Both the position numbers and the translations under genes were made by a program. From assembly GCA_020683205.1 (NCBI GenBank), contig CP085689.1:2162230-2226229 (forward strand): DNA of 64,000 nucleotides. Direction: 5' to 3'. Origin of the DNA: Lentisphaerae bacterium WC36. Lineage in GTDB: Bacteria; Verrucomicrobiota; Lentisphaeria; Victivallales; SZUA-371. The notes under the pieces were generated by a model. That model made no database searches and was not told where the DNA came from. It worked only from the letters and a program-made list of their open reading frames with translations. Shown here piece by piece: positions 32,809 through 55,838 of the stretch (its first letter is position 1; each line of letters starts with the position of its first letter).

Positions 32809-34752
32809 TTAATATGCGCGTTCTTTTCGCCCTTCAACAAAGTTTACAAACGCTTGATTAACCACACGATGTCCGCCTGGTGTTGGATAATCTCCAGTAA
32901 AATACCAATCACCTTTATGATTTGGACACGCTTCATGCAACGCTTCTATCGTTTGAAAGATAATTTCAACTTTAGCCTTGATATTTTCTGGTTTTAAAAT
33001 TTCTGAAATTTTTGCAGAAATTTGTTCAGGGCTAAATGGACTATAAATATTTTTTACAACATTAACCATCTCATTATCAGACAACTTTAATTGCTCTAAT
33101 GCTAACTTATAAGTATCTTCGATAACCTGCATTTGATCAGTATCTTTTAATAATTCAATTGCAGCCTTAAAAGCACAAAAATCTTCTAAATTAGCCATAT
33201 CAATACCGTAACAATCTGGGTAACGAATTTGCGGAGCACTTGATAAAACAATAATCTTTTTAGGACCTAAACGATCTAAAATACGTAAAATGCTCTGACG
33301 CATTGTAGTTCCACGTACAATCGAATCGTCAACTACTACAATATTATCTTCACCCTTGTTTACGGTATTATAACTAATATCATAAACATAAGTTGCTAAG
33401 TCATTACGCATACTGTCATCAGAAATAAAAGTTCGCATCTTAACATCTTTCACGGCTAACTTTTCAGTTCTTGGCGTATAATTAAGAATTTCATCAATTT
33501 TATCAGCATCAAGATTATCAGTTTCTAAAAGCATTTTTTTCTGTTCATCACGACAAAATGACTGTAACCCTTTCACTAATCCATAATAACAATTTTCGGC
33601 AGTATTAGGAATAAATGAAAAAACGGTGTGACGAATATCATAATTAATTGATTTTAATACTTGAGGAGTTAAAAACCAACCTAATTGCTTACGCTCCTGA
33701 TAAATGTCTGCGTCAGTACCACGTGAAAAATAAATACGTTCAAATGAACAAGGTTTTTTCTCAGTTGGTTCTTTATAGTAATCTAAATTGATTGAACCAT
33801 CTTTGTGAATAATTAAAGCTTGAGCAGGCTCTAACTCTTTAAGTTGTTCAGTATCTAAATTAAATGCTGTTTGAATGGCTGGACGTTCAGAAGCGCATAC
33901 AATAATTTCATCATCAGCATAATAAAATGCTGGACGAATCCCTGCAGGATCGCGCATAATAAAACTATCGCCATGCCCAATAATCCCACTAACAATATAA
34001 CCGCCGTCCCAATTTTTACAGGCATTAGTCAATACTTTATTGACGTCTAAATTTTCAGAAATGTATTTAGTAATATCTTGGCCAATAACTTTTTCTTGCT
34101 TAAGCTTTGAAACTAAAGCATTATTTTCCTCATCAAGGTAGTGTGCCAAAGATTCAAGCATTGTTACTGTATCTGCATATTCCGTTGGTTGCTGACCAAT
34201 TTCAACTAATTGGTTGAAAAGCTTTTTAACATTTGTTAAGTTAAAATTACCAGCAATTAATAGATTACGGGTTTTCCAATTGCTTTTACGTGAAAATGGA
34301 TGACACGCATCAATGTTATTACGTCCGAAAGTTCCATAACGCAAATGTCCTAAATAAATATCTCCACAAAAGTCGATGTTATCACGCAACCAAGTTTCAT
34401 CACTAAAATTATCTTTATTGCCATTATTGTATTCAAGAGCAATGCTCTCATTAATATTTTTAAAGACATCCTGAATTGGAGATTGAGCAATTGACTTTTG
34501 CACATTGACATATTTTTTCCCAGGCTCACTATCTAGTTTTAAACATGCTAATCCAACACCATCTTGACCACGATTATGTTGTTTCTCCATCATTAGCTGC
34601 ATTTTATTCAAGCCCCAAAAAGGCGATCCATATTTTTCGATATAATATGAAGTTGGTTTTAAAAGTCGCAAATAAGCAATACCACATTCATGTTTTATTT
34701 CGTCACTCATAAAAGTCCTTTTGCATCCTATTTCTTTACAGGTGTTTATCAA
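32809..34752 (-). CDS. purF: Amidophosphoribosyltransferase (long-form Ntn glutamine amidotransferase)
   Basis: Propeptide followed by nucleophile Cys (HECGIAY); PRTase motif VVVDDSIVRGTT; 647 aa. Confidence 0.75.
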   Translation of the reverse strand: MINTCKEIGCKRTFMSDEIKHECGIAYLRLLKPTSYYIEKYGSPFWGLNKMQLMMEKQHNRGQDGVGLACLKLDSEPGKKYVNVQKSIAQSPIQDVFKNINESIALEYNNGNKDNFSDETWLRDNIDFCGDIYLGHLRYGTFGRNNIDACHPFSRKSNWKTRNLLIAGNFNLTNVKKLFNQLVEIGQQPTEYADTVTMLESLAHYLDEENNALVSKLKQEKVIGQDITKYISENLDVNKVLTNACKNWDGGYIVSGIIGHGDSFIMRDPAGIRPAFYYADDEIIVCASERPAIQTAFNLDTEQLKELEPAQALIIHKDGSINLDYYKEPTEKKPCSFERIYFSRGTDADIYQERKQLGWFLTPQVLKSINYDIRHTVFSFIPNTAENCYYGLVKGLQSFCRDEQKKMLLETDNLDADKIDEILNYTPRTEKLAVKDVKMRTFISDDSMRNDLATYVYDISYNTVNKGEDNIVVVDDSIVRGTTMRQSILRILDRLGPKKIIVLSSAPQIRYPDCYGIDMANLEDFCAFKAAIELLKDTDQMQVIEDTYKLALEQLKLSDNEMVNVVKNIYSPFSPEQISAKISEILKPENIKAKVEIIFQTIEALHEACPNHKGDWYFTGDYPTPGGHRVVNQAFVNFVEGRKERAY

Positions 34753-34951: not shown

Positions 34952-37096
34952 TTAATAGATGAAAAGAAGCTCACTATATTTTGCTAGTGGCCATAAATTA
35001 TCATCAACAATATCTTCTAATTCATCAGCATATTTTCTAACATTATTTGTATAATCAATAATAGTTTTGTAACATTTAGCTTCTTCAACAGCTGCATTTA
35101 AAGTATTAATTGCATCATTTAAACTATTTGTTAAAGCTGTGACATTAGATAACAGTTCAGTTTGAGCAGTTGGATCAATGCCTAGTTCTTTAACTTTTAA
35201 TGCAGAATTTGCTAATTTAGTTTGATATTTAACAGCAACTGGTAAAATTACAGTTTTGGCAATGTTAGCAGCTACTTTACCTTCGATATCAATAATTTTT
35301 TCATATTCTTCAGTTAAGATTTCGTAACGTGATTCGATTTCTTTGTCAGTGAATACGCCATATTTAGCAAACATTGCTTTATTATCAGCAGAACGGAAAT
35401 ATTCTAATGCCTCTGGAGTTGTGCGTAAGTTTAATAAACCACGTCTTTCAGCTTCAACCGTCCACGCATCAGCATAATTGTCACCATTAAAAATAACACG
35501 TTTATGATTTTTGATTACATTACGTAAAACTTCTTCAAGCTTAGTGTTAAAGTTATCTGCATCAGCTTTTTCAAGCTCTGTAGCAATTTCATCCATTGCT
35601 TCCGCAACAATTGTATTAAGAATAACATTTGCTCCAGCACAAGATTGATTAGATCCAACAGCACGGAATTCAAACTTATTACCCGTAAAAGCAAATGGGC
35701 TAGTACGGTTACGATCCGTAGTATCTTTTCTGAATACAGGTAACGCATCAACGCCAACGTGCATTGCTGATTTATGATTAGCATTGCTAGGAACGCCTGT
35801 TTCAATTTCTTCGATAACATCGTTTAGCTCATCACCTAAGAAAATACTAATAATTGCTGGAGGAGCTTCATTTGCACCTAAACGGTGGTCATTTCCTGCA
35901 GATGCAGCAGCAATACGTAAAAGATCAGCGTGTTTATCAACAGCTTGAATAATCGCACATAAAGTTGTTACAAATACAGCATTTGATTTTGGATCATCAC
36001 CTGGCTCAAGCATATTCATGCCGTTAGCACCAATCGACCAGTTATTATGTTTACCAGAACCGTTAACACCAGCAAATGGTTTTTCATGCATCAAGCAAAC
36101 TAAACCATGATTTTCAGCAGTGTTACGTAAAACTTCCATAATCATCATGTTCTGGTCAACAGCTAAGTTTAATTCAGCATATAAAGGTGCTAATTCAAAC
36201 TGAGCAGGAGCTACTTCATTATGACGAGTTTTTGCAGGGATACCTAAAGCCCATAACGCACGGTCAACATCAGACATATAGTTTAAGATACGGCGTTTAA
36301 TTGCACCAAAATAGTGGTCTTCCATCTGTTGATGTTTTGCTGGAGTTGTACCGAACAGAGTTCTTCCTGTTTGAACTAAGTCAGGTCTAGACATATATAA
36401 TTTTCTATCAATCAGGAAGTACTCCTGTTCAGCACCTAAAGTTGGATTTACTTTGCCATCAACTTCGATACCAAAGCAGTTTAAAATTCTTTCAGCTTGT
36501 TTAGAAACAGCTTGTAATGAACGTAGTAATGGAGTCTTTTTGTCAAGAGCTTCACCAGTGTAAGAACAAAATGCTGTAGGAATACATAATGTAGCTCCAT
36601 TGTCATTACGCTTAATGAAAGCTGGACTTGTTGGATCCCAAGCAGTATAACCACGTGCTTCAAATGTCGCACGTAACCCACCTGACGGAAAACTTGATGC
36701 ATCTGGCTCACCTTTAATTAAATTAGACCCACTAAAATTCATAATTACGCCACCTTCACTGTTTGGCTCAATAAATGAATCATGTTTTTCTGCAGTAGAA
36801 CCAGTTAATGGTTGGAACCAGTGAGTATAGTGACTAACACCACGCTCTAATGCCCAACGCTTCATTGCATTTGCAACGCTATCAGCAATATTAGCATCTA
36901 AAATAGAACCAGCATTAATTGTTTTCATTAAAGCTTTAAAAGTATCGCGTGGTAAGTATTCGCGCATCGTTTTTAAGTTAAATACGTCCTTGCCATAAAT
37001 AGAATTAATATCACCATCTTTTCCTTCACAGCTTGGGGCAACGTAAGGATTATCAGTCATTGATTTAATTCCATCTTTTCTTAAATTTTTACTCAT
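34952..37096 (-). CDS. glnA: Glutamine synthetase, type III (GSIII)
   Basis: 714 aa, colinear with ~730-aa GSIII proteins; an ATP/glutamate-binding GS core sits in the middle of a long protein. Confidence 0.85.
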   Translation of the reverse strand: MSKNLRKDGIKSMTDNPYVAPSCEGKDGDINSIYGKDVFNLKTMREYLPRDTFKALMKTINAGSILDANIADSVANAMKRWALERGVSHYTHWFQPLTGSTAEKHDSFIEPNSEGGVIMNFSGSNLIKGEPDASSFPSGGLRATFEARGYTAWDPTSPAFIKRNDNGATLCIPTAFCSYTGEALDKKTPLLRSLQAVSKQAERILNCFGIEVDGKVNPTLGAEQEYFLIDRKLYMSRPDLVQTGRTLFGTTPAKHQQMEDHYFGAIKRRILNYMSDVDRALWALGIPAKTRHNEVAPAQFELAPLYAELNLAVDQNMMIMEVLRNTAENHGLVCLMHEKPFAGVNGSGKHNNWSIGANGMNMLEPGDDPKSNAVFVTTLCAIIQAVDKHADLLRIAAASAGNDHRLGANEAPPAIISIFLGDELNDVIEEIETGVPSNANHKSAMHVGVDALPVFRKDTTDRNRTSPFAFTGNKFEFRAVGSNQSCAGANVILNTIVAEAMDEIATELEKADADNFNTKLEEVLRNVIKNHKRVIFNGDNYADAWTVEAERRGLLNLRTTPEALEYFRSADNKAMFAKYGVFTDKEIESRYEILTEEYEKIIDIEGKVAANIAKTVILPVAVKYQTKLANSALKVKELGIDPTAQTELLSNVTALTNSLNDAINTLNAAVEEAKCYKTIIDYTNNVRKYADELEDIVDDNLWPLAKYSELLFIY

Positions 37097-37175
37097 TGTA
37101 AAATTTACTCCATTTAAAAATAATTTTTAACTTTGTTAAGTTATCTTCTTGTTATATAGTTTTGTTATTTGACTT

Positions 37176-37209
37176 AAAAAAACATTGAGAAGCGTCAATT
37201 TTTCTCAAT
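37176..37209 (-). terminator. Rho-independent terminator after gltD (attgagaa / ttctcaat stem plus a U7 run on the minus strand)
   Basis: 8-bp stem with the A7 run at 37176-37182 on the plus strand; a second 10-bp hairpin (ccgtcaaaat…attttgacgg) lies at 37233-37270. Confidence 0.5.
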
Positions 37210-37316
37210 TAAATAAATATTTATTATCGAACCGTCAAAATTTTATAAAAAAGTTATGCCATTTTGACGGCTCTAAATAAACACTTACATTTTTGTAACT
37301 ATTTATTTAATGTGAT

Positions 37317-38744
37317 CTATTTTAAATAGTTATCAACGTCTATAGCCATATCTTTACCAGCTTTAATCGCTCTAACTACTAATGATGCGCCTGAAACAAT
37401 ATCACCCGCTGCAAAAACTTTTTCAGCACTTGTCATACCGTTTTCATTAACCACAATATTACCACGCGGGTCTAAGTTTAAACCCAAATCATCAATTGAG
37501 CCAACTTTCTCAGGACCAACGAATCCCATTGCTAAAAGAACTAAATCAGCTTTTAGCTGGAATTCACTTCCTTCAACCTCTGTGAAGCTAACTGGACGAC
37601 CATTTTCGATTTTCCATTCAACTTTAGCACAGTTTAATGCAGTAACATGGCCTTCATCATTTGTCACAACTTCTTTTGTTAATACATCCCACATACGTTC
37701 ACAACCTTCTTTATGGCTGCTTGAAGTACGTAGCATATAAGGCCATTCTGGCCAAGGAGTTGACGCATCACGTGTTTCTGGAGGACATGGCATAATCTCA
37801 ATTTGAGTAACGCTTTTTGCTCCTTGACGATTAGATGTACCAACACAGTCAGAACCAGTATCACCACCACCAATAACAACGATATTTTTATCTATAGCTA
37901 AAAGCTCATCGCCTGCAACTTTTTCACCACTCACGCGACAATTTTGTTGTGTCAAGAAATCCATTGCATACTCAACACCTTTAGCATTGCGACCAACTAC
38001 GTTTTCTGGTAAACCACGTGGAGCACGAGCGCCATATGTTAAGCAAACTGCATCAAAATCTGCTAGAATATCAGCAATTTTTGTATCAACACCAACATTA
38101 ACGCCAAATTTGAACGTAACGCCTTCTTCAGTCATTAAATCAACACGACGTTGAACGATATTTTTATCTAATTTAAAATCTGGAATACCATAACGTAATA
38201 AACCACCAGCATAATTAGCACGCTCAAAAACTGTTACATTATGACCCATTTTATTTAAATCATCAGCAACCGCCATACCAGCAGGCCCTGCACCGATTAC
38301 AGCAATTTTCTTATCAGAACGCTCTTTTGGAGGTTGTGGCTTAATCCAACCTTCTTCAAAACCTTTTTCAACTAAGAATTTTTCAATCTGACGAATTGTT
38401 ACAGCCTCTCCATCAATGCCTGATGTACAAGATGCCTCACAAAGAGCTGGGCAAATTCTACCAGTAAATTCTGGGAAATTACTTGTATCAAGAAGCAATT
38501 CTAATGCTTCTTGATATTTTCCTTGACTTGCTAACTCATTCCACTCAGGAATCACATTAGATAATGGACAACCTAAACCATGACAAAATGGAATACCACA
38601 GTCCATACATCTTGATGATTGGCTTTTGATCTCATCTTCAGATAAAAACTTCTCAACTTCTTTATAATCTTTGACCCTTTCATCTTTATTTCTGTAACCA
38701 GGATCAACTCTATCTATTTCTAAAAAACCTCTTGGATTACTCAT
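37317..38744 (-). CDS. gltD: Glutamate synthase small (NADPH) subunit
   Basis: Cys clusters CMDCGIPFCH…C; FAD/NAD Rossmann motifs AVIGAGPAGMA and VVIGGGDTGSDC; 475 aa. Confidence 0.85.
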   Translation of the reverse strand: MSNPRGFLEIDRVDPGYRNKDERVKDYKEVEKFLSEDEIKSQSSRCMDCGIPFCHGLGCPLSNVIPEWNELASQGKYQEALELLLDTSNFPEFTGRICPALCEASCTSGIDGEAVTIRQIEKFLVEKGFEEGWIKPQPPKERSDKKIAVIGAGPAGMAVADDLNKMGHNVTVFERANYAGGLLRYGIPDFKLDKNIVQRRVDLMTEEGVTFKFGVNVGVDTKIADILADFDAVCLTYGARAPRGLPENVVGRNAKGVEYAMDFLTQQNCRVSGEKVAGDELLAIDKNIVVIGGGDTGSDCVGTSNRQGAKSVTQIEIMPCPPETRDASTPWPEWPYMLRTSSSHKEGCERMWDVLTKEVVTNDEGHVTALNCAKVEWKIENGRPVSFTEVEGSEFQLKADLVLLAMGFVGPEKVGSIDDLGLNLDPRGNIVVNENGMTSAEKVFAAGDIVSGASLVVRAIKAGKDMAIDVDNYLK

Positions 38745-38760: not shown

Positions 38761-41700
38761 TTAGTCGTTGATAACTTCACGCTTTACTTCAGCGTCTTCT
38801 TTTGACATTTTTCCTAAAACTTTACGATATTCAGTTGGGAAAACTTTTACAAATTTATGTAAATTTTCGCTCCAGTTATCTAGAATACTTTTAGCTTTTG
38901 GACTTTCTGTATACTCGAAATGTTTCTCAATCATGCCTTTTAATAATGCTTCATCTTCTGCGCTCACCACAGGCTCTAAGTCAATCATTTCTAAGTTACA
39001 TTTTAAGTCAAAGTCACCTTTCTCATCTAGGATATAAGCAAATCCAGCACTCATTCCAGCACCGAAGTTCACACCAGTGTCACCTAGACAAACTACAATA
39101 CCACCAGTCATATATTCACAGCAATGATCTCCAGCACCCTCAATAACAGTTTTTGCACCACTGTTACGGATTGCGAAACGTTCACCAACTTGACCATTAA
39201 CATATAACTCACCGCTTGTTGCGCCATATAATAATACGTTACCAGCTAAAACGTTATCTTCAGGAGTGAAATCACTAACGCGTGGAGGACGGATACTAAT
39301 AATACCACCACTTAAACCTTTACCAACGTAATCATTACCCTCACCTTCTAGACGGAACGTGATACCTTTCTTCAAGAACGTACCGAAACTTTGTCCCGCA
39401 CAACCTGTAAATGTGAAATCAATTGTATGATCTGGTAAACCGGCTAAACCATGAGCTTTAACAACTGCATTTGATAACATTGGTCCAGCAGTACGGTTTA
39501 AGTTACAGATATCAACTGTTTTCTTTGTTGGAACGCTTGCGTCAGATAAAGTTTCCGCAGCTTCTTTAATTAGCAATTGGTCATATGCTTTATCAATGCC
39601 GTGATCTTGAGCTACGCTTTGTTTTACTGGTAATGAATCATACTCAGTAGGACGAGCAAAAATAGCACTGAAATCTAAGTTTTTAGTCTTCCAGAAGCCA
39701 ATTGCGTCATTCATTTCCAATAGGTCAGTTCGACCTACAGCTTCATCAATCGAACGTAAACCAAGGCTTGCTAAGTATTCACGAACCTCTTCAGCTACAA
39801 AGTAGAAGAAGTTGATTAAATGCTCAGGTTTTCCTGGGAAACGACTACGGCACTCTGGATCTTGAGTCGCTACACCTACAGGACATGTATTACTGTGGCA
39901 TTGACGCATCATTAAGCAACCAATCATTACTAGAGCAGTTGTACCAAAACCGAATTCTTCAGCACCAAGTAAAGCACCGATAATCACATCACGACCAGTT
40001 TTCATTTGACCGTCAACTTGGACTCGGATACGATCACGAAGTTTATTTAATACTAATGTTTGTTGAGTTTCAGCTAAACCTAATTCCCAAGGCAAACCAG
40101 CATGTTTAATAGATGTCATTGGAGATGCACCAGTACCGCCATCGTGACCTGAAATCAATACCATGTCACTATGAGCTTTAGATACACCAGCCGCGACTGT
40201 ACCAACACCAACTTCTGATACTAACTTAACGCTAATACGAGCTTGTGGATTCGAGTTCTTCAAGTCATAAATCAACTGAGCTAAGTCCTCAATAGAATAA
40301 ATATCATGATGTGGAGGTGGTGAAATTAATGTTACACCTGGTACCGAGTTACGAACTTTAGCGATGAATTCATCAACTTTAAATCCTGGTAACTGACCAC
40401 CTTCGCCTGGTTTTGCGCCTTGAGATACTTTAATTTGTAATTCTTTAGCATGACTTAAATAATCAATTGTTACACCAAAACGCCCACTTGCAATCTGTTT
40501 AATTGCACTACATTTATCATCACCGTTTGGCATTGGAGTAAAACGAACAGGATCTTCACCACCCTCACCACTGTTACTCATACCACCAATACGGTTCATA
40601 GCGATTGCCATAGTTTCGTGTGCTTCTTTTGATAATGAACCAAGAGACATTGCACCTGTTACGAAACGTTTTACAATCTCATCAGCAGACTCAACTTCAT
40701 CAATTGAAATTGGAGTTGCGTTTTTAAATTTAAACAATCCACGCAGAGTACAAAGGTTTTTCTCTTGATTATTGATTGTTTCAGCATATTCTTTATATGC
40801 TTTTTTATCGTTATTACGAACTGCATATTGAACTTTTGTAATGTTCTCTGGAGTCCATAAATGTTTCTCACCATTGTTACGGTAACGATATACACCACCT
40901 TCACTTAAGATAGATGATTTATCAGTTGCCGCAGCTTCAACACGCATTGTTGCTTCTTTAGCGATTTCATCTAAACCAATACCAGCAACACGGCTAGCAG
41001 TGTTTGTGAAATAATTATCAATTACTGCTTTATTTAAACCAACAGCTTCGAAAACTTGCGCGCCACGGTAACTACGTAATGTAGCTATACCCATTTTAGA
41101 CATAATTTTCATTAAGCCTTTACCTGTAGCTTTGATATAATTTTCAATAGCTTTCACTGTATCAACGCCGGCTTTCAATGCTCTTTTGTCAGCTAGATCA
41201 GCAATTGTTTCTAACGCTAAGTATGGGTTAATTGCAGTTGCACCATAACCTAATAATAATGCATAATGCATAATTTCACGAGCTTCACCAGTTTCAACGA
41301 CTAAACCTGCACTTGTACGAATACCTTCGTTCGTTAGGAAGTTGTTAACAGCAGCAACTGCTAATAATGATGGAATCGGCGCTTCGTTAGCAGCTAAATT
41401 ACGGTCTGAAAGAATAATTACGCTGTTACCATCAGCAATCGCTGCCTTTGCCGCTTCACAAACATCTTCTAATGCAGCTTTTAATGAAGAACCTTCACCA
41501 TCAGCTGCAAAACCAATCTTAATTGTTTGTGATTGGAATGTATCAATTTTAGCCTTTTGCAGACGACATAAGTCATCATTAGTTAAAATTGGTTGTTTCA
41601 TTTTTAATAAATGAGCATTGCATGGAGTTTCTTCAAGTATATTGCTGTGGTTTCCAATAAAAGTAGTTAAACTCATCACTAACGACTCACGAATTGGATC

Positions 41701-43308
41701 AATCGCAGGATTTGTAACCTGGGCAAATAATTGTTTGAAGTATGCAAATAATAATTGTGGCTTTTCAGATAAAACTGCTAATGCCGCATCATTACCCATT
41801 GAACCAGTCGGCTCCATGCCATTTTCACTCATAGGCTTAATTACAACATTAACGTCTTCACGACTGTAACCAAACATTTTTTGACGTTTTAATAAATCAG
41901 CTTCTGCTTTTGGAGTAGCATTTTCATTATTATATAAACCGCGTAATTCAATTTTGTTTTCTTGAACCCAACGACGATATGGTTGACTACGAGCAATTCT
42001 GCTCTTTAACTCTGTATCGAAAACAACACGGTCATTATTAATATCAACAAACATCATCTGCCCTGGCTTAATACGACCACGCTTTGCAATGTTTACATCT
42101 TCAATATCAATAACTCCAGCCTCTGAAGCCATGAAAATTTTATTATCTTTAGTGATTGTATAACGAGCTGGACGTAAACCATTACGGTCTAACATTGCAC
42201 CAATGCCACGACCATCACTAAATGCAACAGCAGCAGGACCATCCCATGGTTCCATGATACCAGCATGGTATTCGTAGAAACCTCTTAGATCATGCCCCAT
42301 GTAATATTTCTCTCCCCAAGCTTGAGGGATTAACATCATCGCTGAATGCGTCATGCTACGACCACTCTTTGAGAATAACTCTAAAGCATTATCCAAACAT
42401 GCACTATCACTTTGTCCTTGTTTAATAACAGGAATAATTTTCTTAATATCTTCACCATATAATTCACTAGCAAATGACGTTTCACGTGCGCGCATGTGAT
42501 TATAGTTACCACGTAATGTATTAATCTCACCATTATGTGCTAAGTAGCGGAATGGTTGAGCTAATGGCCACGTTGGGAAGGTATTTGTAGAGAAACGTTG
42601 GTGAACAACTGCGATTGCAGATTCCATATCTACATCATTTAAGTCGTGGAAGAATTTTGTAACTTGAGGAGCTAACAATAATCCTTTATAAACAACTGTT
42701 AATGATGAAAAACTACAAAAATAGAAATCATCACCGTCTTGCTCATTAGCAACAGCAGTGTTTTCAATATCACGTCTTAATACATATAATTCACGTTCGA
42801 AATTATCGGCATTTGTGAATTCTTTAGTACTTTCAACAAAACATTGCATAATCACTGGCATAGATTCTTTTGCTAAGCTACCAACATAATTGGTATCAAC
42901 TGGAACAGCTCTCCATCCCAATAACTTAAGGTTATTCTCAACAATTTTATCTTCGATTAATTTTGTTAACTCTGTACGTGCACCATCTTCTTGTGGCAAG
43001 AAAATCATTGCTACACCATATTTACCAGCTTCAGGTAATGTGATGTTGATCTCTTTACATGCTTTTTGGAAGAATTTATCTGGAACCTGCATTAAAATAC
43101 CAGCACCGTCACCAGTTTCTGGGTCGCATCCTACAGCACCACGGTGCTCAATACGTTCTAAAATTGTAATTCCGTCACGAATAATTTGATGGCTTTTACT
43201 TCCGTCAATGTTTGCAGCGAAGCCAACACCACAAGCATCGTGCTCAAATTGACTACTGTATAGTCCTTGAGTCTCTGGGTAAACATTTTTAAATTTACGT
43301 TTGTTCAT
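38761..43308 (-). CDS. gltB: Glutamate synthase large subunit
   Basis: N-terminal Cys1 amidotransferase (DACGVGF); FMN and 3Fe-4S domains; 1515 aa. Confidence 0.9.
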   Translation of the reverse strand: MNKRKFKNVYPETQGLYSSQFEHDACGVGFAANIDGSKSHQIIRDGITILERIEHRGAVGCDPETGDGAGILMQVPDKFFQKACKEINITLPEAGKYGVAMIFLPQEDGARTELTKLIEDKIVENNLKLLGWRAVPVDTNYVGSLAKESMPVIMQCFVESTKEFTNADNFERELYVLRRDIENTAVANEQDGDDFYFCSFSSLTVVYKGLLLAPQVTKFFHDLNDVDMESAIAVVHQRFSTNTFPTWPLAQPFRYLAHNGEINTLRGNYNHMRARETSFASELYGEDIKKIIPVIKQGQSDSACLDNALELFSKSGRSMTHSAMMLIPQAWGEKYYMGHDLRGFYEYHAGIMEPWDGPAAVAFSDGRGIGAMLDRNGLRPARYTITKDNKIFMASEAGVIDIEDVNIAKRGRIKPGQMMFVDINNDRVVFDTELKSRIARSQPYRRWVQENKIELRGLYNNENATPKAEADLLKRQKMFGYSREDVNVVIKPMSENGMEPTGSMGNDAALAVLSEKPQLLFAYFKQLFAQVTNPAIDPIRESLVMSLTTFIGNHSNILEETPCNAHLLKMKQPILTNDDLCRLQKAKIDTFQSQTIKIGFAADGEGSSLKAALEDVCEAAKAAIADGNSVIILSDRNLAANEAPIPSLLAVAAVNNFLTNEGIRTSAGLVVETGEAREIMHYALLLGYGATAINPYLALETIADLADKRALKAGVDTVKAIENYIKATGKGLMKIMSKMGIATLRSYRGAQVFEAVGLNKAVIDNYFTNTASRVAGIGLDEIAKEATMRVEAAATDKSSILSEGGVYRYRNNGEKHLWTPENITKVQYAVRNNDKKAYKEYAETINNQEKNLCTLRGLFKFKNATPISIDEVESADEIVKRFVTGAMSLGSLSKEAHETMAIAMNRIGGMSNSGEGGEDPVRFTPMPNGDDKCSAIKQIASGRFGVTIDYLSHAKELQIKVSQGAKPGEGGQLPGFKVDEFIAKVRNSVPGVTLISPPPHHDIYSIEDLAQLIYDLKNSNPQARISVKLVSEVGVGTVAAGVSKAHSDMVLISGHDGGTGASPMTSIKHAGLPWELGLAETQQTLVLNKLRDRIRVQVDGQMKTGRDVIIGALLGAEEFGFGTTALVMIGCLMMRQCHSNTCPVGVATQDPECRSRFPGKPEHLINFFYFVAEEVREYLASLGLRSIDEAVGRTDLLEMNDAIGFWKTKNLDFSAIFARPTEYDSLPVKQSVAQDHGIDKAYDQLLIKEAAETLSDASVPTKKTVDICNLNRTAGPMLSNAVVKAHGLAGLPDHTIDFTFTGCAGQSFGTFLKKGITFRLEGEGNDYVGKGLSGGIISIRPPRVSDFTPEDNVLAGNVLLYGATSGELYVNGQVGERFAIRNSGAKTVIEGAGDHCCEYMTGGIVVCLGDTGVNFGAGMSAGFAYILDEKGDFDLKCNLEMIDLEPVVSAEDEALLKGMIEKHFEYTESPKAKSILDNWSENLHKFVKVFPTEYRKVLGKMSKEDAEVKREVIND

Positions 43309-43394
43309 TTTACTTGACCTGACTTTCTTTATCTTAATTTTTACTTAAAGTTCTTAATTTATTATATTTTATTTCAAAATTCAGCATTTTAATT

Positions 43395-43410
43395 AGCAAA
43401 TATCATGCCA
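43395..43410 (-). promoter_or_regulatory. Sigma-54 (-24/-12) promoter TGGCAT-N5-TTGCT directed at gltB
   Basis: The plus-strand agcaaatatcatgcca is the reverse complement of TGGCATGATATTTGCT; GG and GC have the correct 10-nt spacing; about 85 nt upstream of the gltB ATG. Confidence 0.55.
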
Positions 43411-43729
43411 ACTTCTATATTATAGTTATAATAGATTAATTTTCAACTTGTTAGGTTTTTTTAAAAATCCCATTACTTAATTATAACATTACAAAAATGT
43501 CATAAATTTAAGACTTTATTACATTTTTGTATTTTTTTTAAAAACTTTTGTTTTTTTTCATATTATCCCTAGATTTTTTAAAAAAAAGACCTATGTGTTT
43601 AGTATAGCATTTATTTTTTTTAGAAATTATTAACTTTAATTTTTTAGTAATTCCAAACTAAACAAAAATTTTAAAATAGCGTAATTTTTGAAAAAAACTA
43701 AAAATTTTTAATAAAAATGGTAAATTAAA

Positions 43730-45268
43730 GTGAAAAACATTGAAAAAAACCTTGAATTACGAGTTTTAAATAAAATCAGCACTACAATTGTTCGCGAGCG
43801 TAATGTGGGTCAAATGTTCAAGGATACTTTTAATATTCTTTCTCATGAGCTGAATATTGAGCGTGGGACACTTACCTTAAAGCGTGGAAATGAGTTATTT
43901 ATTGAAGCATCTCATGGGTTAAGCAGTGAAGAGCGTCGCCGAGGAAAATATGCTCTTGGAGAAGGAGTTACGGGTCAGGTTGCAATGCGCGGCGAAGCTA
44001 TTACAATCCCTAATATTAGTCAAGAACCGGCATTTTTATACCGAACTGGAGTCAAACGTGTTGCGCATGGCGCTTTTATTTGTGTACCAATTAAAAGCGA
44101 AGGCGATGTTATTGGGACACTTAGTATAGAATTACTTGAAGATGACGCTGATTATCTTGAACAATTAGAATTTCTTCTTTCAACAGTTGCGAATATTATG
44201 GCAAATGCTGCGGCTGCTATTCTAATGGAAATTGAAGAACATGAAAAACTTGTAGAAGAAAATCAACGTTTAAAAATTGAACTAAATCATCATTTTATTC
44301 CCGAAAATATGATTGGTACAGGTAGCCAAATGCGTGAAATTTTCGTGCAAGTGGGGCAAGTTGCAGAATCACCAGCGACAGTATTAATTACAGGAGAATC
44401 TGGTACTGGTAAAGAATTAATTGCCCGTGCAATTCACAATGCTAGTCCTAGAAAAAATAATCCATTCATAGCAGTAAACTGCGGAGCTTTGCCAGAAAAT
44501 TTAGTTGAAAGTGAACTTTTCGGACATGAAAAGGGTGCATTTACTGGCGCAGTTGAACGTCGAAAGGGGCGCTGTGAACTTTCTGATGGTGGAACGCTAT
44601 TTTTAGATGAAATTGGTGATATTTCAATCCCAGTCCAGGTAAAATTATTACGTTTTTTACAAGAAAAAACGTTTCAACGAGTTGGTGGATCGATTGACAT
44701 TAATGTTGATGTTAGAATTATTGCTGCAACAAGCCGAAATTTAGAAGATTACATTGCTAATGATAGATTTCGAGAGGACCTTTATTACCGCTTAAATGTA
44801 TTTCCGATTCACCTACCAAATTTACGCAAACGCCGTACCGATATTATTCCATTGGCAGAACATTTCCTTGAAAAATTCAACAAAATGTATGGCAAAAATA
44901 TCAAACGAATTTCTACACCAGCAATTAATATGCTTTTATCATATCACTGGCCAGGGAACGTGCGTGAACTTGAAAACTGTATAGAGCGAGTTGTTTTAAC
45001 AACTCAAGATGAGGTTATTAGAGGTTATAATATGCCTCCATCACTGCAAACAGCACAAGCAACAAACACGACTATTATTCCAGAAGATAATAGCGGAGTT
45101 TCGCTTGAAACAATGATGGAGCTGTACGAAAAAGAGTTAATTATTGATGCATTGAAAAATCACCGTGGTAATGTGGCTGCGACGTCAAGATTCTTAAAAA
45201 GCACTCCGCGAATCATACACTACAAGATTAAACAATTAAAAATTGATCCATCAAAATTTAAACTTTAG
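43730..45268 (+). CDS. Sigma-54-dependent transcriptional activator with an N-terminal GAF domain (NifA-like bacterial enhancer-binding protein)
   Basis: GAF-like N-terminus; AAA+ domain with GESGTGKE Walker A and the GAFTGA motif; C-terminal HTH (…[25 protein letters not shown]); 512 aa. Confidence 0.8.
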
Positions 45269-45534: not shown

Positions 45535-48195
45535 TTAATGCGTGTGTTCCCCCAATTCAGGATGAGAATGTGTTCCCTCATAAACTCCACCCATACCAAT
45601 TGTTGAATAGATATAACTACAATGGTAACATTTATATTTTGTTACACCGTCTTCTTCTGGACAACCACATGTTAAAGAATTAGGGAAAAAATCTCCACAA
45701 GCTGCACATTCAGATCCATATAAATAAATACATGAACTAATATTAGGATTTGAATCTCCTGACCCTGAATCTCCTGACCCTGAATCTCCTGACCCTGAAT
45801 CTCCTGACCCTGAATCTCCTGAACCTGAATCTCCTGAACCTGAATCTCCTGAACCTGAATCTCCTGAACCTGAATCTCCTGAACCTGAATCTCCTGACCC
45901 TGAATCTCCTGAGCCTGAATCTCCTGAGCCTGAATCTCCTGAACCTGAATCTCCTGAACCTGAATCTCCTGAACCTCCTGATCCGTTAGAATCATGCGAA
46001 TGTTCACCTAATTCAGGGTGTGAGTGTGTTCCCTCATAAGCTCCACCCATGCCAGTTGTTATGTAAATATAGCTACAGTGATAACATTTATACTTTGTTA
46101 CACCATCTTCTTCTGGACAACCACATGTCAAAGAATTAGGGAAAAAATCCCCACAAGCTGCACATTCAGATCCATGCAAATAAACACATTGCACTGGGTC
46201 AGAAATTACCACCTTTAACACTCCCTTGTATAACTCAAGCATATCTGGCATCCATGCTGAAATTGCTTTTGTATATATATAATAAACTCCTGGCGTATTA
46301 AAAGTAACAAATTTTCTTGTAACTTCTTTTTTTTGTTCTATTAAGGTATTTTCAACAAGAGCTGGTCCATAAAATTCGAAATGAACAAATTCTAAAGTTG
46401 AATACCCCTTCCCTATCAGTTTATATGTTGTATTTGTAGTTCCATAAAAAATTTCGCCATTATCGGCAGCTATTCTGCTAGGCATTCTAGATGTAGCAAA
46501 TATCTCACCTGTTGTCGCATCTGTGATAGAAGCCTCAAGGAAACACTCTTCATATTCGTCAGCGACAGTAATTTTTCTATAAATATATACTGGTTCACCT
46601 TCTGGTCCAGTTCTTTCTAATTGCCCTCGAATCACATATGTTCCTGGTAAACTAATAGCAAATCGTTTAGCACCTGATAAAACTGTTTTTACAAGAGTTC
46701 CATCACCTTCAACCGTGATTAATGACGCAACATTATCTTTTATGCTTTCTTGACACGATAAAAATTCTGAAAGCTCAACCATCTCAAAAGCATTAACATC
46801 ATAGGTGACACTACTTTTTTTACAATTTTCTAAATTATAATATATAGGACCATCCCCTGGGTTTGACGATGACTCTGAAATTACAACCTTTAACACTCCC
46901 TTGTATAACTCAAGCATATCTGGTAGCCATGCTGAAATTGCTTTTGTATATATATAATAAACTCCTGGAGTCTTAAAAGTAACGAATTTTCTTGTAACTT
47001 CTTTTTTTTGTTCTATTAAAGTATTTTCAACAAGAGCTGGTCCATAAAATTCGAAATGAACAAATTCTAAAGTTGAATAACCTTTCCCTATCAATTTATA
47101 TGTTGTATTTGTAGTTCCATAAAAAATTTCGCCATTATCAGCAGCTATTCTGCTAGGCATTTTAGATGTAGCAAACACCTCACCTGTTGTCGCATCTGCA
47201 ATAGAAGCCTCAAGGTAGCATCCTTCATATTCGTCAGCCACAGTAATTTTTCTGTAAATATATACTGGTTCACCTTCTGGTCCAGTTCTTTCTAATTCAC
47301 CTCGAATTACATAAGTTCCTGGTAAACTAATAGCAAATCGTTTAGCCCCAGATGCAACAGTTTGTACAAGAGTACCATCACCTTCAATCGTGATTAATGA
47401 TGCAACATTATCTTTTATGCTTTCTTGACACGATAAAAATTCTAAAAGAACAACCATTTCATAGGCATTAACATCATAGGTAGCGTTATCATTTTTTGAT
47501 TCTTCTAAGTCATAATATACAGAACTTGTAACCGAGCCCCCAGAACCTGAATCTCCTGAACCTGAATCTCCTGAACCTGAATCTCCTGAACCTGAATCTC
47601 CTGAACCTGAATCTCCTGAACCTGAATCTCCTGAACCTGAATCTCCTGAACCTGAATCTCCTGAACCTGAATCTCCTGAACCTGAATCTCCTGAACCTGA
47701 ATCTCCTGAACCTGAATCTCCTGAACCTGAATCTCCTGAACCTGAATCTCCTGAACCTGAATCTCCTGAACCTGAATCTCCTGAACCTGAATCTCCTGAG
47801 CCTGAATCTCCTGAGCCTGAATCTCCTGAGCCTGAATCTCCTGAGCCTGAATCTCCTGAGCCTGAATCACCTGAGCCTGAATCTCCTGAGCCTTCGTTCT
47901 CATGAGTATGTTCTCCTAATTCAGGATGTGAATGTGACCCCTCGTACAATCCCCCCATATATGTGTTATATTCATAACTACAATGATAACAACGGTAGAT
48001 GGTCGACCCATCTTCCTCTGGACAACCGCATGTTGGAGAATAGTACACTGACTTTGCACAAGCGGCACAATCTGATCTAAATAAATAAACACATGAACTA
48101 CTTGGAACAGCTTCTGTTTCACCTTTTACTAATGGCGTTGTTATCATAGAGGTTAATAACAACATCATCGAAAATACAAATTTTTTAAATTTCAT
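45535..48195 (-). CDS. Large secreted modular repeat protein with three Cys7/His-rich modules, two (SGD)n linkers and a duplicated ~210-aa domain
   Basis: Signal peptide. Architecture is A1–(GDSGS)~23–B1–B2–A2–(GDSGS)~16–A3, where A = C-x7-C-x2-C…CGCPEEDG…YxCYHCSY…HSHPELGEH[TS]H. Confidence 0.6.
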   Translation of the reverse strand: MKFKKFVFSMMLLLTSMITTPLVKGETEAVPSSSCVYLFRSDCAACAKSVYYSPTCGCPEEDGSTIYRCYHCSYEYNTYMGGLYEGSHSHPELGEHTHENEGSGDSGSGDSGSGDSGSGDSGSGDSGSGDSGSGDSGSGDSGSGDSGSGDSGSGDSGSGDSGSGDSGSGDSGSGDSGSGDSGSGDSGSGDSGSGDSGSGDSGSGDSGSGDSGSGDSGSGGSVTSSVYYDLEESKNDNATYDVNAYEMVVLLEFLSCQESIKDNVASLITIEGDGTLVQTVASGAKRFAISLPGTYVIRGELERTGPEGEPVYIYRKITVADEYEGCYLEASIADATTGEVFATSKMPSRIAADNGEIFYGTTNTTYKLIGKGYSTLEFVHFEFYGPALVENTLIEQKKEVTRKFVTFKTPGVYYIYTKAISAWLPDMLELYKGVLKVVISESSSNPGDGPIYYNLENCKKSSVTYDVNAFEMVELSEFLSCQESIKDNVASLITVEGDGTLVKTVLSGAKRFAISLPGTYVIRGQLERTGPEGEPVYIYRKITVADEYEECFLEASITDATTGEIFATSRMPSRIAADNGEIFYGTTNTTYKLIGKGYSTLEFVHFEFYGPALVENTLIEQKKEVTRKFVTFNTPGVYYIYTKAISAWMPDMLELYKGVLKVVISDPVQCVYLHGSECAACGDFFPNSLTCGCPEEDGVTKYKCYHCSYIYITTGMGGAYEGTHSHPELGEHSHDSNGSGGSGDSGSGDSGSGDSGSGDSGSGDSGSGDSGSGDSGSGDSGSGDSGSGDSGSGDSGSGDSGSGDSGSGDSGSGDSNPNISSCIYLYGSECAACGDFFPNSLTCGCPEEDGVTKYKCYHCSYIYSTIGMGGVYEGTHSHPELGEHTH
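45750..45985. repeat. Perfect 15-bp tandem repeat (cctgaatctcctgaN), about 16 units, coding for (SGDSG)n
   Basis: Seen directly; units differ only at wobble positions. Confidence 0.85.
46200..47540. repeat. Tandem duplication of about 680 bp, two copies at about 95% identity, inside the repeat-protein gene
   Basis: The same strings (e.g. acctttaacactcccttgtataactcaagcatatctgg) occur at 46209 and 46887; the encoded 210-aa domains are nearly identical. Confidence 0.8.
47545..47893. repeat. Second block of the same 15-bp tandem repeat, about 23 units
   Basis: Seen directly. Confidence 0.85.
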
Positions 48196-48487: not shown

Positions 48488-50884
48488 TTATTCTTTATTA
48501 ATTATAAAATTTTGATTACTACCATAAATTTTAAAGTCTTTAATCCGTCCAGTTGCTTTATTTGCTCGTGGCAAATACAACAATTTACCAACATCTTGCT
48601 TTTTACCCAAATCAATTACAATCTGATGTGGATGAGTTGGAGTATTACCACCTTGCCATTTTGTATGCCAATAAGTCACTGGCTGATTATCAATAATATT
48701 ATCAGCTCCGCCTGACTCCCCAACTTTTTCCTCACTATCGGCATAAATAACCTTCCAGCCATTGCGATCTATTTCAGCACCATCCTTATCAAACATATGA
48801 ACTTCAGCAATCGTCGTATACTTATCGTTTTTACTGAATGAACTCAATGCCTCAATACAAATATAGCGACACTTCGTCCCTTTATTAAAAGCAACTGTTT
48901 GCCCAACTGCTGAATTTTTAAACTGCCCTTGAGCAACAATATCACTTTGCTGTAATTTTAATTCTTGCCCAGCCTTGCGTAAATATTTGATTCCAGAATC
49001 ATTCTTCAATTCATAGACCATATTTTTTAAACCTTGAACTTTATTAATATTTTTTGGCTCAAGGTCCATAACAATAATCTCATTATTACCACGCTTTAAC
49101 CAGCATCCTGGTAAATAAAGAGCCTGTTGAGGTCCAATACTCCAGAATCTACCCAAGTTGTGACCATTAACCCAAACCATACCTTTTCCCCATTTTCTCA
49201 TATCAAGAAATGTATCACCAATTTCATTTAACGTGAAAATTCCTTTATAAAAGTATGGCATGGCGTTTTGTGCTTTTGTAACTTTTGAAAACTTTAATTC
49301 ATCGATATTATCGAGGGGAAATCCAATCATTTGCCAATTTTTAAGTTCTTTATTCGCTAATAAAACTTTTCCAGGAATACCTTTGCGATCAGTTACCATG
49401 GTGTGAGAGAAATTAATATGCCCCATATTTTCAACCAAAATATCAAGCGTGGCATTGCCCGCAGGAATATCAACTTCAATGCTTTTTTGATTATTGCCAT
49501 GACGTCGATCCAATGTCCCAACTTTTTTGCCATTGACAATAATAATTGCACGATCACTTAACGTTGAAAAAGTTAATTTGCCTTTAACAGGTCCAGTTAT
49601 ATTAGTTTTATATAAAACAAATCCTTGATTAACATCAATTGCTTCCATATAAGTTGGCACTTCAACATTAACTGGCGAGCTCGCTAATTGACTAAATGAA
49701 GCCATTTGACTCATCCCAAATGTTGGAATAGTAATTTTCTTAATTGGTTTAGGCATTGGCGGTAAAACAGTTCCCTCTGGAAGATATTTTTTGATAACAT
49801 TTTGGAAATCATAAAATTTCTTTGCTGGTGTACCGTCTTCATGTAAGTTTGCTGAATAATCATAACTAGTAGTATCAACGCTATATTTTCCTGACCAATT
49901 TGCTCCAGAACTAAAACCAAAATTTGTTCCACCAATGAACATATAATTATTAAATGAAATATTATTTTTTAGCATCCACTCAATCATTACAGCTTTTTCT
50001 TTACCATTAGTACTGTGATGTTGAGCGCCCCAATGGTCAAACCAGCCAGTCCAAAATTCTCCAGCCATTCGTGGCAATTTGGGGCAATATTTATCAAAAA
50101 CTTTAAATGCATTTTGTGGATTATTACCAAAATTCATGCTTGGAGTAACCCCATCAATGTGACCATTTTCAATATTTGCTTTTCTTGGCCAGTCACACCT
50201 TATCAATAAACTATCGGTAAAACCAGCTTCAACGTAAAGCTGTTTCATTTGATTTAAATATTCTTTATCCTTTCCAAAAACTGCATATTCATTTTCTACC
50301 TGAGTCATAATAATTGGACCACCACGATCAATTTGCAAGTCGCGAAGTTGTTCGCCAACGGCATTTAAATAGCGTTTTGTAGCTGCCATAAATTTTGGAT
50401 CTTTACTTCTAATTACCATCTTTGGATCTTTCAATAACCACGCTGGCATACCACCTAAATCCCATTCAGAGCAAATATAAGGGCCAGGACGTAAAATTAC
50501 CCATAAACCTTCATCTTGGGCAATTCGACAAAATTCAGCAATGTCCAATTCTCCAGTAAAATCAAATTGACCTGGTTGTTTTTCATGAGCATTCCAAAAA
50601 ACGTAAGTACTAATAGTGTTCAGACCCATCGCACGTGCTTTTTTCATGCGATCACGCCAATATGCTCTAGGAACACGAGTATAGTGCAATGATCCAGACA
50701 TTATTAAAGCTGGCTTATTGTTAAAAACAAAATTTCTTTTTTCAATGCCAAAAGTTGGTTGCTTTTCGCCTTGAGAGTTAGGAATTGGTGCTAAATTTAC
50801 AGTTTGAGCGCTACTAACTAAAGCTCCTAAACTCACAGCAGCGAACAATAAATTTTTAAATTTTTTCTTCTTATTTTGTTTCAC
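48488..50884 (-). CDS. Secreted GH35-family beta-galactosidase with a C-terminal F5/8 type C (discoidin) domain
   Basis: Signal peptide; GH35 core (GLNTISTYVFWNAHE, PGPYICSEWDLGGMPAWL, catalytic ENEY); a discoidin-like tail; 798 aa. Confidence 0.8.
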   Translation of the reverse strand: MKQNKKKKFKNLLFAAVSLGALVSSAQTVNLAPIPNSQGEKQPTFGIEKRNFVFNNKPALIMSGSLHYTRVPRAYWRDRMKKARAMGLNTISTYVFWNAHEKQPGQFDFTGELDIAEFCRIAQDEGLWVILRPGPYICSEWDLGGMPAWLLKDPKMVIRSKDPKFMAATKRYLNAVGEQLRDLQIDRGGPIIMTQVENEYAVFGKDKEYLNQMKQLYVEAGFTDSLLIRCDWPRKANIENGHIDGVTPSMNFGNNPQNAFKVFDKYCPKLPRMAGEFWTGWFDHWGAQHHSTNGKEKAVMIEWMLKNNISFNNYMFIGGTNFGFSSGANWSGKYSVDTTSYDYSANLHEDGTPAKKFYDFQNVIKKYLPEGTVLPPMPKPIKKITIPTFGMSQMASFSQLASSPVNVEVPTYMEAIDVNQGFVLYKTNITGPVKGKLTFSTLSDRAIIIVNGKKVGTLDRRHGNNQKSIEVDIPAGNATLDILVENMGHINFSHTMVTDRKGIPGKVLLANKELKNWQMIGFPLDNIDELKFSKVTKAQNAMPYFYKGIFTLNEIGDTFLDMRKWGKGMVWVNGHNLGRFWSIGPQQALYLPGCWLKRGNNEIIVMDLEPKNINKVQGLKNMVYELKNDSGIKYLRKAGQELKLQQSDIVAQGQFKNSAVGQTVAFNKGTKCRYICIEALSSFSKNDKYTTIAEVHMFDKDGAEIDRNGWKVIYADSEEKVGESGGADNIIDNQPVTYWHTKWQGGNTPTHPHQIVIDLGKKQDVGKLLYLPRANKATGRIKDFKIYGSNQNFIINKE

Positions 50885-54611: not shown

Positions 54612-55499
54612 TTAGTAATTACTGCATGTTTTACCTTTTGATTTAAAAGTAGGATTACTACATTGAATACACCATGCTTCAGAATTAAAGTCTGCATAGC
54701 TTTCTTTCCACTCCTCTTCAGTACTTTCATAAATTGTTCCACTTCTTATTGGATAATCAGGATGATAATCACCTGTACCATCATCATCTATATCGGGATT
54801 GTGATATTGGTCAGCATGTGTAATAGAACCATCTGGATTTACATAACCATAATCAAACTTAATACTATCTTCATCCATACCTTCCTTATCCCAATTACTA
54901 AAATCAGCTTTGCCTGTTTTAGGGTCAAACGTTACATCAGGATTTATACCATCTTTGCCTTTATCATTCCAAAAGTGAACTGAAAACATTTTTGGACAAA
55001 CCTTGTCTTTGCATTTATTTTTCATTTCTCCCTGAGCATCTGTTGCTTGTTGTTTTGTTTTATAGCAATTATCATGATTTTCAATAACTCCAGTATTAGC
55101 ACAAACAACTCCGACACATCCCCTATTTATTTGTTTTCTCACCCAAGGTGCATATATAATATTCCCAGGATTTTCTTTAAATTTAGGGTGTGCATCAAAA
55201 TATTTTTTTAAATAATCTTCCAACGACATTTCTGTTCTTAATCCTAAAATATCATAGAAAACAATTGGATTATTGTACGAATTCCCATAAATGTTTTCTC
55301 CACCTTTTTCTTGGATTGGGTCACGTTTTAACCATTTTCCTGTGCTTGGGTTGTAATAACGGTAATTGTAATAGATTAATCCTGTTTCTTTTTCAGCATA
55401 TTCACTACTGAATTTGAACACGTTTTCAACATTCTCATCTGTTTTTGCTAATTGTCCAAATGGGCTATAATCGTATTTATTAGCGATTTCTCCTGTTGT
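54612..55499 (-). CDS. Rhs-family C-terminal orphan cassette 1; homology begins right after a stop at about 55499, with the first ATG at 55421
   Basis: …LTTGEIANKYDYSPFGQLAKTDENVENVFKFSSEYAEKETGLIYYNYRYYNPSTGKWLKRDPIQEKGGENIYG…DILGL followed by a unique ~200-aa Cys-rich C-terminal domain. Confidence 0.65.
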   Translation of the reverse strand, partial: TTGEIANKYDYSPFGQLAKTDENVENVFKFSSEYAEKETGLIYYNYRYYNPSTGKWLKRDPIQEKGGENIYGNSYNNPIVFYDILGLRTEMSLEDYLKKYFDAHPKFKENPGNIIYAPWVRKQINRGCVGVVCANTGVIENHDNCYKTKQQATDAQGEMKNKCKDKVCPKMFSVHFWNDKGKDGINPDVTFDPKTGKADFSNWDKEGMDEDSIKFDYGYVNPDGSITHADQYHNPDIDDDGTGDYHPDYPIRSGTIYESTEEEWKESYADFNSEAWCIQCSNPTFKSKGKTCSNY

Positions 55500-55565
55500 T
55501 AATTATCTTATCCTTGTTAATCACATCCTAAATATTTAAACTTCTTTTATACTTTTTTTACAAAA

Positions 55566-55594: not shown

Positions 55595-55619
55595 AATTTG
55601 TTTTCTCACTTTTGATAAT

Positions 55620-55835: not shown

Positions 55836-55838
55836 ATA

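Follow-up and report, generated by a model that had tools for sequence, protein, structure and literature searches.

A predicted sigma-54 promoter of gltBD with paired enhancer sites and a divergent GAF-domain activator in Lentisphaerae bacterium WC36

The arrangement of the glutamate synthase (GOGAT) genes gltB and gltD in Lentisphaerae bacterium WC36 raises the question of how their transcription is controlled and, in particular, whether their promoter is served by the gene lying divergently from gltB, which encodes an enhancer-binding protein (EBP) with a GAF domain and without a receiver domain. We analysed a stretch of 64,000 nucleotides of this genome (contig CP085689.1, positions 2,162,230 to 2,226,229 of the forward strand), hereafter the window, which has a GC content of about 32%. 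A first-pass annotation of the window had proposed that this activator drives gltBD from a sigma-54 promoter. The proposal is supported by a conserved -24/-12 element, by a pair of upstream activating sequences (UAS) at fixed distances from it and by the recurrence of the same code before nitrogen genes elsewhere, and we consider it highly probable that the predicted sigma-54 promoter of gltBD is served by the divergent, receiver-less GAF activator through two enhancer sites. The features on which this reading depends are the following.

38761-43308, minus strand: gltB, for the large subunit of glutamate synthase, at the head of the predicted sigma-54 transcript (NF008730, 1784 bits; four GOGAT Pfam domains)
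37317-38744, minus strand: gltD, glutamate synthase small subunit (TIGR01317, 596 bits)
43309-43384, minus strand: predicted, unstructured 5' UTR of gltB, about 76 nt long (fold z-score +1.45)
43410-43395, minus strand: predicted sigma-54 promoter of gltBD, TGGCATGATATTTGCT, with TGGCAT as -24 region and TTGCT as -12 region
43490-43501, no strand assigned: proximal putative UAS TACAAAAATGTC, with one mismatch to TACA-N4-TGTA, its centre about 87 bp 5' of the -24 GG, near -111
43520-43531, no strand assigned: distal putative UAS TACATTTTTGTA, exact TACA-N4-TGTA, about 117 bp 5' of the -24 GG, near -141
43730-45268, plus strand: EBP of 512 aa, divergent from gltB (Pfam, NCBIfam and sequence reading)

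A near-consensus sigma-54 element had been placed about 85 nt before gltB, and this was confirmed: TGGCATGATATTTGCT lies 86 nt 5' of the gltB ATG on the same strand, with its GG doublet at 43409-43408 and its GC doublet at 43397-43396, exactly 10 bp between them. It is the sole exact match to TGGCAY-N5-TTGCW in the 64-kb window, so that the search for further sites advised at first, for example upstream of glnA, brought up none elsewhere in it. By chance, 0.19 matches would be expected per window, and at least one occurred in 19 of 100 shuffled windows. Taken on its own, without conservation or enhancers, such a match is only suggestive of a promoter; what raises it above chance is that it is kept in relatives and stands within an enhancer architecture. 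Two close relatives, L080 and L081 (88% and 78% protein identity), keep the divergent gltB/activator layout; an alignment of the three spacers revealed that TTGGCA-N7-TGCTAA is invariant, while the AT-rich flanks have for the most part changed, as have the five bases of the spacer within the element. The element also fits the consensus of 24 promoters of the family, T-GG-CA-Y...T-GC-T. From its position, transcription of gltB is predicted to start near 43384, and the block GAAAGTCAGGTC before the gltB ATG is kept in L080 and L081 as well. A riboswitch or structured leader 5' of gltB was ruled out by the unstructured leader and by the lack of any Rfam family match anywhere in the window. A site for integration host factor (IHF), TTTCAACTTGTTA (43439-43451), spotted by eye, lacks conservation, and we make no claim for it. 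As to the sigma factor itself, neither rpoN nor PII or amtB was found among the Pfam-scanned open reading frames (ORFs) of the window, a set that does not include five of at least 100 aa at 58.9-63.9 kb. RpoN (COG1508) is present in both of the Lentisphaerae genomes covered by a 2011 survey (PMC3372290).

The enhancer sites had been expected to be inverted repeats of the type TGT-N10-ACA. We found TACA-N4-TGTA instead; the window holds 22 matches to TGT-N10-ACA, a number at chance level, and none of them lies within 43309-43729. An N5 spacer, our first guess for the palindrome, was wrong, the sites being N4. A distance of 30 bp, or about three helical turns, separates the two UAS, which share the flanks TTACA...TGTAA. 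Both are conserved in the spacer alignment with L080 and L081, and the proximal one occupies the same position in L080, L081, L016, L017, L003, L049, L051 and L058. The window contains three exact matches to TACA[W4]TGTA where 0.41 would be expected; none of 100 shuffles reached three.

The architecture proposed for the activator, GAF–AAA+(GAFTGA)–helix-turn-helix (HTH) without a receiver, was borne out by its Pfam domains and by its sequence. The protein comprises a GAF domain (residues 25-160), a Sigma54_activat domain (PF00158, residues 194-361, 244 bits, full model), AAA_lid_14 and HTH_8 (PF02954, residues 464-502); the GAFTGA loop and the Walker A and B motifs are present, the linker at 160-190 appears heptad-like by eye (coiled-coil-like) and the Pfam scan gave no Response_reg (receiver) domain. 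The best PDB match of the GAF domain is Aquifex Nlh1 (4g3k, E = 2.5e-17, residues 7-177), ahead of NifA, and that of the full-length protein is the NifA structure 9qq6_C (E = 7e-108). Within the family, the GAF domain has invariant polar residues that include E59, E68, R71, Y74, E78 and T130. Other identities were rejected: NtrC, in view of the missing receiver and the GAF N-terminus, the TIGR01818 (NtrC) match being limited to the AAA+ part; NorR, with a score of 367 against a cutoff of 476; and FhlA, for which the match begins only at residue 117. For NorR and FhlA the regulon, nitrogen assimilation, is also a different one. The models of the remaining named activators likewise gave scores below their cutoffs. 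Convergent with the activator gene lies an ORF for an 886-aa hypothetical protein (45535-48195, minus strand), with a weak pentapeptide-repeat match only and a singleton cluster in the protein collection.

Support for the assignment of these sites to the activator comes from its relatives. A search of the genome collection with the GAF domain of the family yielded 79 loci, mostly from Lentisphaerota/Victivallales and some labelled Kiritimatiellia, Verrucomicrobiota or Opitutales, in which the conserved neighbours of the activator are type-III glutamine synthetase (GS-III; about 14 loci), a class-I/II aminotransferase (15 loci), amtB-glnK and gltBD. High-scoring sigma-54 sites in these loci precede GS-III, amtB, a GS-I–gltB–gltD operon (L078) and a paralogous activator gene. 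One to four TACA-N4-TGTA motifs lie 73-150 bp 5' of 12 of the 14 best intergenic sigma-54 sites. The UAS pair recurs at the same distances before the sigma-54 promoters of GS-III, GS-I–gltBD, amtB–glnK and the activator paralogue in about 25 related loci, typically at about 87 and 117 bp, as in the window, or at 75 and 105 bp. Over 1.3 Mb of related loci the density of the motif is 0.15 per kb, and 31 of 45 exact matches are intergenic, although intergenic DNA makes up only 7.7% of the sequence; most of the intergenic ones stand 5' of the activator gene, GS-III or amtB. GS-III is a direct predicted target of the family in at least 12 of these loci. Many exact matches lie 28-130 bp before the start codon of the activator itself, which, by the usual argument of comparative genomics, would assign the site to the activator and suggests that the family is autoregulated. 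The Opitutales homologues (43-49% identity; L052-L056 and L071-L079) have neither the motif nor nitrogen neighbours, and we therefore draw the boundary of the family above them. In the divergent GS-III/activator spacers of L037-L058, a conserved block, AATATAGT, is found just distal to the enhancer pair; its opposite strand resembles a -10 hexamer for the activator gene, which would set the activator promoter against its binding sites.

We also searched metagenome contigs at the DNA level only with a composite pattern consisting of TACA-N4-TGTA, N17-19, TACA-N4-TGTA, N60-85 and TGGCAY-N6-TGC. It occurs in at least 120 metagenome loci with a GC content of 33-66%. Among the matches listed, to which all the following counts refer, the first downstream gene encodes glutamine synthetase (GS) in 30 loci, AmtB in 26, GlnD at the head of glnD-amtB-glnK-glnA operons in 22, PII in eight, a GOGAT-type protein in three, NifH in two, and GDH and CarA in one each, so that canonical nitrogen genes lie directly downstream in about 78%. 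A homologue of the EBP (33-61% identity) is encoded in 25 loci, often adjoining the motif, and about 18 of these 25 aligned near full length including the GAF domain; the activator of one metagenome locus, 48% identical to the window protein, comes from Desulfobacterales. As judged from sequence, this predicted cis-code is a widespread nitrogen-regulon signature rather than a peculiarity of Lentisphaerota. In L093 and L167 the enhancer pair and sigma-54 code stand before nifH, followed by PII-like genes, and the activator family may also control nitrogenase in some organisms. In L107, L126, L142 and L201 the composite pattern lies 5' of genes of the phenol/methane-hydroxylase family, beside an activator without the GAF region; these matches are either due to chance or reflect a related enhancer used by another EBP.

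The occurrence of the code before nifH in two metagenome loci bears on whether the protein could be a genuine NifA, with nitrogenase targets elsewhere and an incidental place beside gltB. The best NCBIfam model is indeed nifA, the best full-length PDB match is the NifA structure 9qq6, and homologues carry the JGI label 'Nif-specific regulatory protein'. Against this, the TIGR01817 score of 470.9 bits falls below the cutoff of 528.85, the spacer has no TGT-N10-ACA, the activator lacks a Cys-rich interdomain linker, no nif genes occur among the scanned ORFs of the window or the conserved neighbours of 81 related loci, and the conserved targets are GS, GOGAT and AmtB; we regard a genuine NifA as scarcely credible.

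How far the transcript extends was addressed by examining the genes downstream of gltD, for which the relevant features are listed below.

37174-37273, minus strand: two hairpins 3' of gltD, a 13-bp stem at 37273-37229 and a stem with U-run at 37208-37176
37286-37297, no strand assigned: lone, unpaired exact TACA-N4-TGTA, 20 nt past the gltD stop, upstream of GS-III
34952-37096, minus strand: glnA, GS-III (Pfam GSIII_N and Gln-synt_C-ter)
32809-34752, minus strand: long purF-like amidophosphoribosyltransferase gene (sub-threshold TIGR01134; catalytic motifs)

The minus-strand order gltB, gltD, GS-III and purF-like gene agrees with the first-pass annotation, as ORF positions and profile scores attest. 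The hairpin terminators that it had described between the genes were recovered in the gltD-glnA interval (two hairpins, z = -5.16, minimum free energy -32.4 kcal/mol, none of 200 shuffles as stable), in the glnA-purF interval (z = -6.7) and 3' of purF (z = -5.8), but not at the gltB-gltD junction, where the gap is 16 nt and carries no hairpin terminator. The hairpins 3' of gltD are the likely end of the gltBD transcript. From the short gltB-gltD gap and the hairpins after gltD, glnA and the purF-like gene it follows that the transcription unit of the sigma-54 promoter is gltB-gltD. The idea of a whole cluster under this promoter thus holds for gltB and gltD and not for GS-III and purF, which lie behind terminators and for which a pattern scan gave no sigma-54 site 5' of either gene in the window. 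The purF assignment is plausible from the translation, which has the amidotransferase Cys in an N-terminal 'HECGIA' and the phosphoribosyl pyrophosphate (PRPP) motif VVVDDSIVRGTT, with a TIGR01134 score of 123 bits against a cutoff of 350. This ORF is listed from a TTG and its true start is probably the ATG at 34710 (MSDEIKHECGIA…); a TTAAAA-16-TATAAT sequence lies just 5' of it, at 34781-34754.

We thus propose the following mechanism. The gltB-gltD unit would be transcribed from the sigma-54 promoter at 43410-43395, whose opening would need an ATP-driven activator. Dimers of the activator (43730-45268) would bind the palindromes at 43520-43531 and 43490-43501; once the GAF domain relieves its inhibition, the AAA+ domains would form a ring, and the A/T-rich DNA in between would let its GAFTGA loops touch sigma-54 and form the open complex, and the transcript would terminate at the hairpins after gltD. 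The signal is presumably nitrogen limitation, because the predicted co-regulated set consists of GS, GOGAT, AmtB-GlnK and GlnD, and the GAF domain would read nitrogen status, either from 2-oxoglutarate or glutamine directly or via PII. More broadly, the family is predicted to control an ammonium-assimilation set in Lentisphaerota, Kiritimatiellia, some Verrucomicrobiota and Desulfobacterales, and this set would comprise GS-III or GS-I, GOGAT, AmtB-GlnK, GlnD, sometimes nifH, and usually the activator gene itself. The activator would then be a functional equivalent of NtrC with a sensor of NifA/Nlh1 type.

The wiring could be as described and the GAF domain nevertheless be controlled by PII (GlnB/GlnK), in which case the protein would not be a true one-component sensor. 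This is an appreciable possibility, if a minority one in our judgement. It is favoured by the presence of glnK, and in many metagenome loci of glnD, within the same predicted regulon, and it has a precedent in the GAF domains of NifA from Azospirillum, Herbaspirillum and Rhodospirillum, whose control by PII is established (PMC3854208, PMC9866876). On the other side, the Pfam-scanned ORFs of the window include no PII gene, and the GAF domain of Azotobacter NifA binds 2-oxoglutarate directly (Little and Dixon 2003, cited in PMC9866876). The invariant polar residues of the GAF domain listed above would suit a small-ligand pocket. None of these three points decides the matter.

Several observations weigh against the proposal that the divergent activator serves gltBD from these sites. 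The first is that its DNA-binding domain shares 46% identity with the one in Desulfovibrio vulgaris DVU0569, a predicted regulator of alanine dehydrogenase with a different motif, and only 31% over 42 aa with the one in DVU1949, the protein to which this motif was assigned (Kazakov et al. 2015, PMC4641369), the comparison with DVU1949 being confined to this 42-aa domain. The assignment of the window protein to the motif rests for this reason on co-localisation only, and the palindromes might be bound by a regulator encoded elsewhere, for example a true DVU1949 orthologue, with the adjacent GAF activator being incidental or serving another promoter; L081, for instance, encodes a receiver-type EBP and a histidine kinase about 7 kb away. 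We consider such a regulator unlikely, as the motif adjoins genes of the GAF-EBP family in dozens of loci of 33-66% GC from at least two phyla and in some of them precedes the start codon of the activator itself by 28-130 bp. Beside the motif, moreover, no gene for another regulator is conserved, and TPRxxxY[KR]I[KR]Q is common to the recognition helix of the window protein and that of DVU1949.

Just 5' of the sigma-54 element, a sigma-70-like sequence, TTGAAA-16-TATAAT (43446-43419, minus strand), matches at 11 of 12 positions. If the housekeeping sigma factor transcribed gltBD from there, the sigma-54-like sequence would be a chance match of the kind that a single hit in 19% of shuffled windows allows. 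L080 and L081 keep the -24/-12 element but not these hexamers; sigma-70-like matches occur at chance density in this AT-rich region (57 found vs 55.9 expected), and the sigma-54 element has the enhancer pair of the family at the canonical distance. Transcription from the sigma-70-like site instead of the sigma-54 promoter is thus very improbable in our view, although a weak basal sigma-70 promoter could exist alongside the sigma-54 element. The mismatch in the proximal UAS also belongs on this side, as does the GS-III gene of the window, which has no recognisable sigma-54 promoter, unlike its orthologues. The lone palindrome upstream of it has no sigma-54 element beside it: a TGGCAT lies 22 nt downstream without a -12 GC, and there is no GG-N10-GC in 37097-37316. 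The corresponding spacer of L081 lacks this site, which may be a remnant of the sigma-54 promoter found before GS-III in most relatives.

Elsewhere in the window, the minus strand at 54612-63942 carries at least six ORFs whose N-terminal parts are 55-84% identical and end in a core motif of Rhs/YD type (…YNYRYYNPSTGKWLKRDPI…); their C-termini diverge, small lipoprotein-like ORFs are interleaved and none has a Pfam match. The array resembles a set of orphan Rhs toxin/immunity cassettes. At 18631-22297 (minus strand), three paralogous ORFs of 363-400 aa lie in tandem; they are 31-37% mutually identical and belong to no Pfam family. A PL8 polysaccharide lyase (3437-5521), a sulfatase (29831-31255) and a GH35 beta-galactosidase with an F5/8 type C domain (48488-50884) suggest degradation of sulfated glycans, and a gene for a FlgN-like flagellar chaperone is found, in this Lentisphaerota genome, at 121-558.

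Hardly any work has addressed nitrogen control in the Planctomycetes-Verrucomicrobia-Chlamydiae (PVC) superphylum or in many anaerobes, and our literature search found nothing specific on sigma-54 nitrogen control in Lentisphaerota or the PVC group. The locus offers a clean model made of four parts, namely an activator gene, two 12-bp sites, a sigma-54 promoter and an operon. To judge by its strain-style name and its single 3.66-Mb contig, the organism appears to be an isolate. If GOGAT, like GS and AmtB, is a direct target of sigma-54 as predicted, the high-affinity GS-GOGAT pathway would stand under one switch. With about 78% of the matches listed preceding nitrogen genes, the cis-code has the specificity needed to pick out members of the regulon in metagenomes, and genes that respond to nitrogen could be annotated by it in uncultured Lentisphaerota, Kiritimatiellia and Desulfobacterales. 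The family is also large and diverse enough to help in identifying the ligand of Nlh-type GAF domains. More tentatively, and as a possibility that we take seriously without calling it probable, the sigma-54 promoter with its two UAS and the NifA/Nlh1-like activator may constitute one ancient master nitrogen regulon that replaces NtrBC in many gut and sediment anaerobes, with the GAF domain reading 2-oxoglutarate or glutamine directly; the same degree of caution applies to its span, which would then include Lentisphaerota, Kiritimatiellota/Verrucomicrobiota and Desulfobacterota.

The proposed system can be compared with several known ones. It resembles NtrB-NtrC in the sigma-54 activation of glnA and amtB-glnK from tandem upstream sites and in autoregulation, and differs in that the activator has neither a receiver nor an adjacent kinase, takes its input through a GAF domain and has another binding site. 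Direct control of gltBD by sigma-54 is not the Escherichia coli scheme. With NifA it shares the order of domains and a full-length alignment (9qq6_C), and the recognition helix of its HTH is presumably NifA-like in type; it differs in scoring below the TIGR01817 cutoff, in its enhancer, TACA-N4-TGTA instead of TGT-N10-ACA, in its targets, GS, GOGAT and AmtB, and in having neither a NifL partner nor a Cys-rich redox linker. A further parallel is Nlh1, a NifA-like protein of a non-diazotroph that is thought to control nitrogen assimilation and not fixation (PMC9866876). The GAF–AAA+–HTH architecture is common to the window protein and to Nlh1 (AQ_218) and Nlh2 of Aquifex aeolicus. The lineage is another one, the sequences are distant, the regulon and enhancer of the window were derived from comparative genomics and not from biochemistry, and gltBD is among the targets here; AQ_218 reportedly binds about 100 bp upstream of glnBA, in work from Studholme and colleagues in 2000.

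Finally, the sigma-54 regulome of D. vulgaris and other Desulfovibrionales was reconstructed computationally by Kazakov et al. (2015), in whose scheme the single-component activator DVU1949 governs a regulon of nine operons, 'nitrogen metabolism and transport', including DVU1231-1233 (ammonium transporter, PII, GlnD), DVU1258 (GS-III), DVU3392, DVU1823-1821, DVU3290-3292 and its own operon (PMC4641369). Their list of sites contains GTTACATTTTTGTAAT, ATTACAAAATTGTAAT, ATTACATTTTTGTAAC and others, and the assignment of protein to motif was made from presumed autoregulation, not adjacency (PMC4641369). The enhancer motif that we derived independently is that of the published DVU1949 sites. The two systems further share a single-component GAFTGA activator, the motif tTTACA-N4-TGTAAa, usually in several copies 90-400 bp 5' of the gene, the ammonium transporter-PII-GlnD and GS-III operons as targets, and autoregulation; we take DVU3392, DVU1823-1821 and DVU3290-3292 to be GS-I and glutamate-synthase genes. 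They differ in that the window comes from Lentisphaerota and has a bacterial-type gltBD divergent from the activator gene. Given the low identity of the DNA-binding domains, either specificity rests on few residues or the assignment of the motif to DVU1949 deserves a second look, and the co-localisation seen here means that it may need revisiting. We found no further literature mentioning DVU1949, and the system so far appears to be a computational prediction only. The first-pass view that the wiring of gltBD departs from the textbook NtrBC and GltC schemes therefore stands, whereas its novelty does not, since the same motif and type of regulon were predicted in 2015 (PMC4641369). Taken together, the locus is a well-defined example, in a new phylum, of a type of system already predicted by computation.

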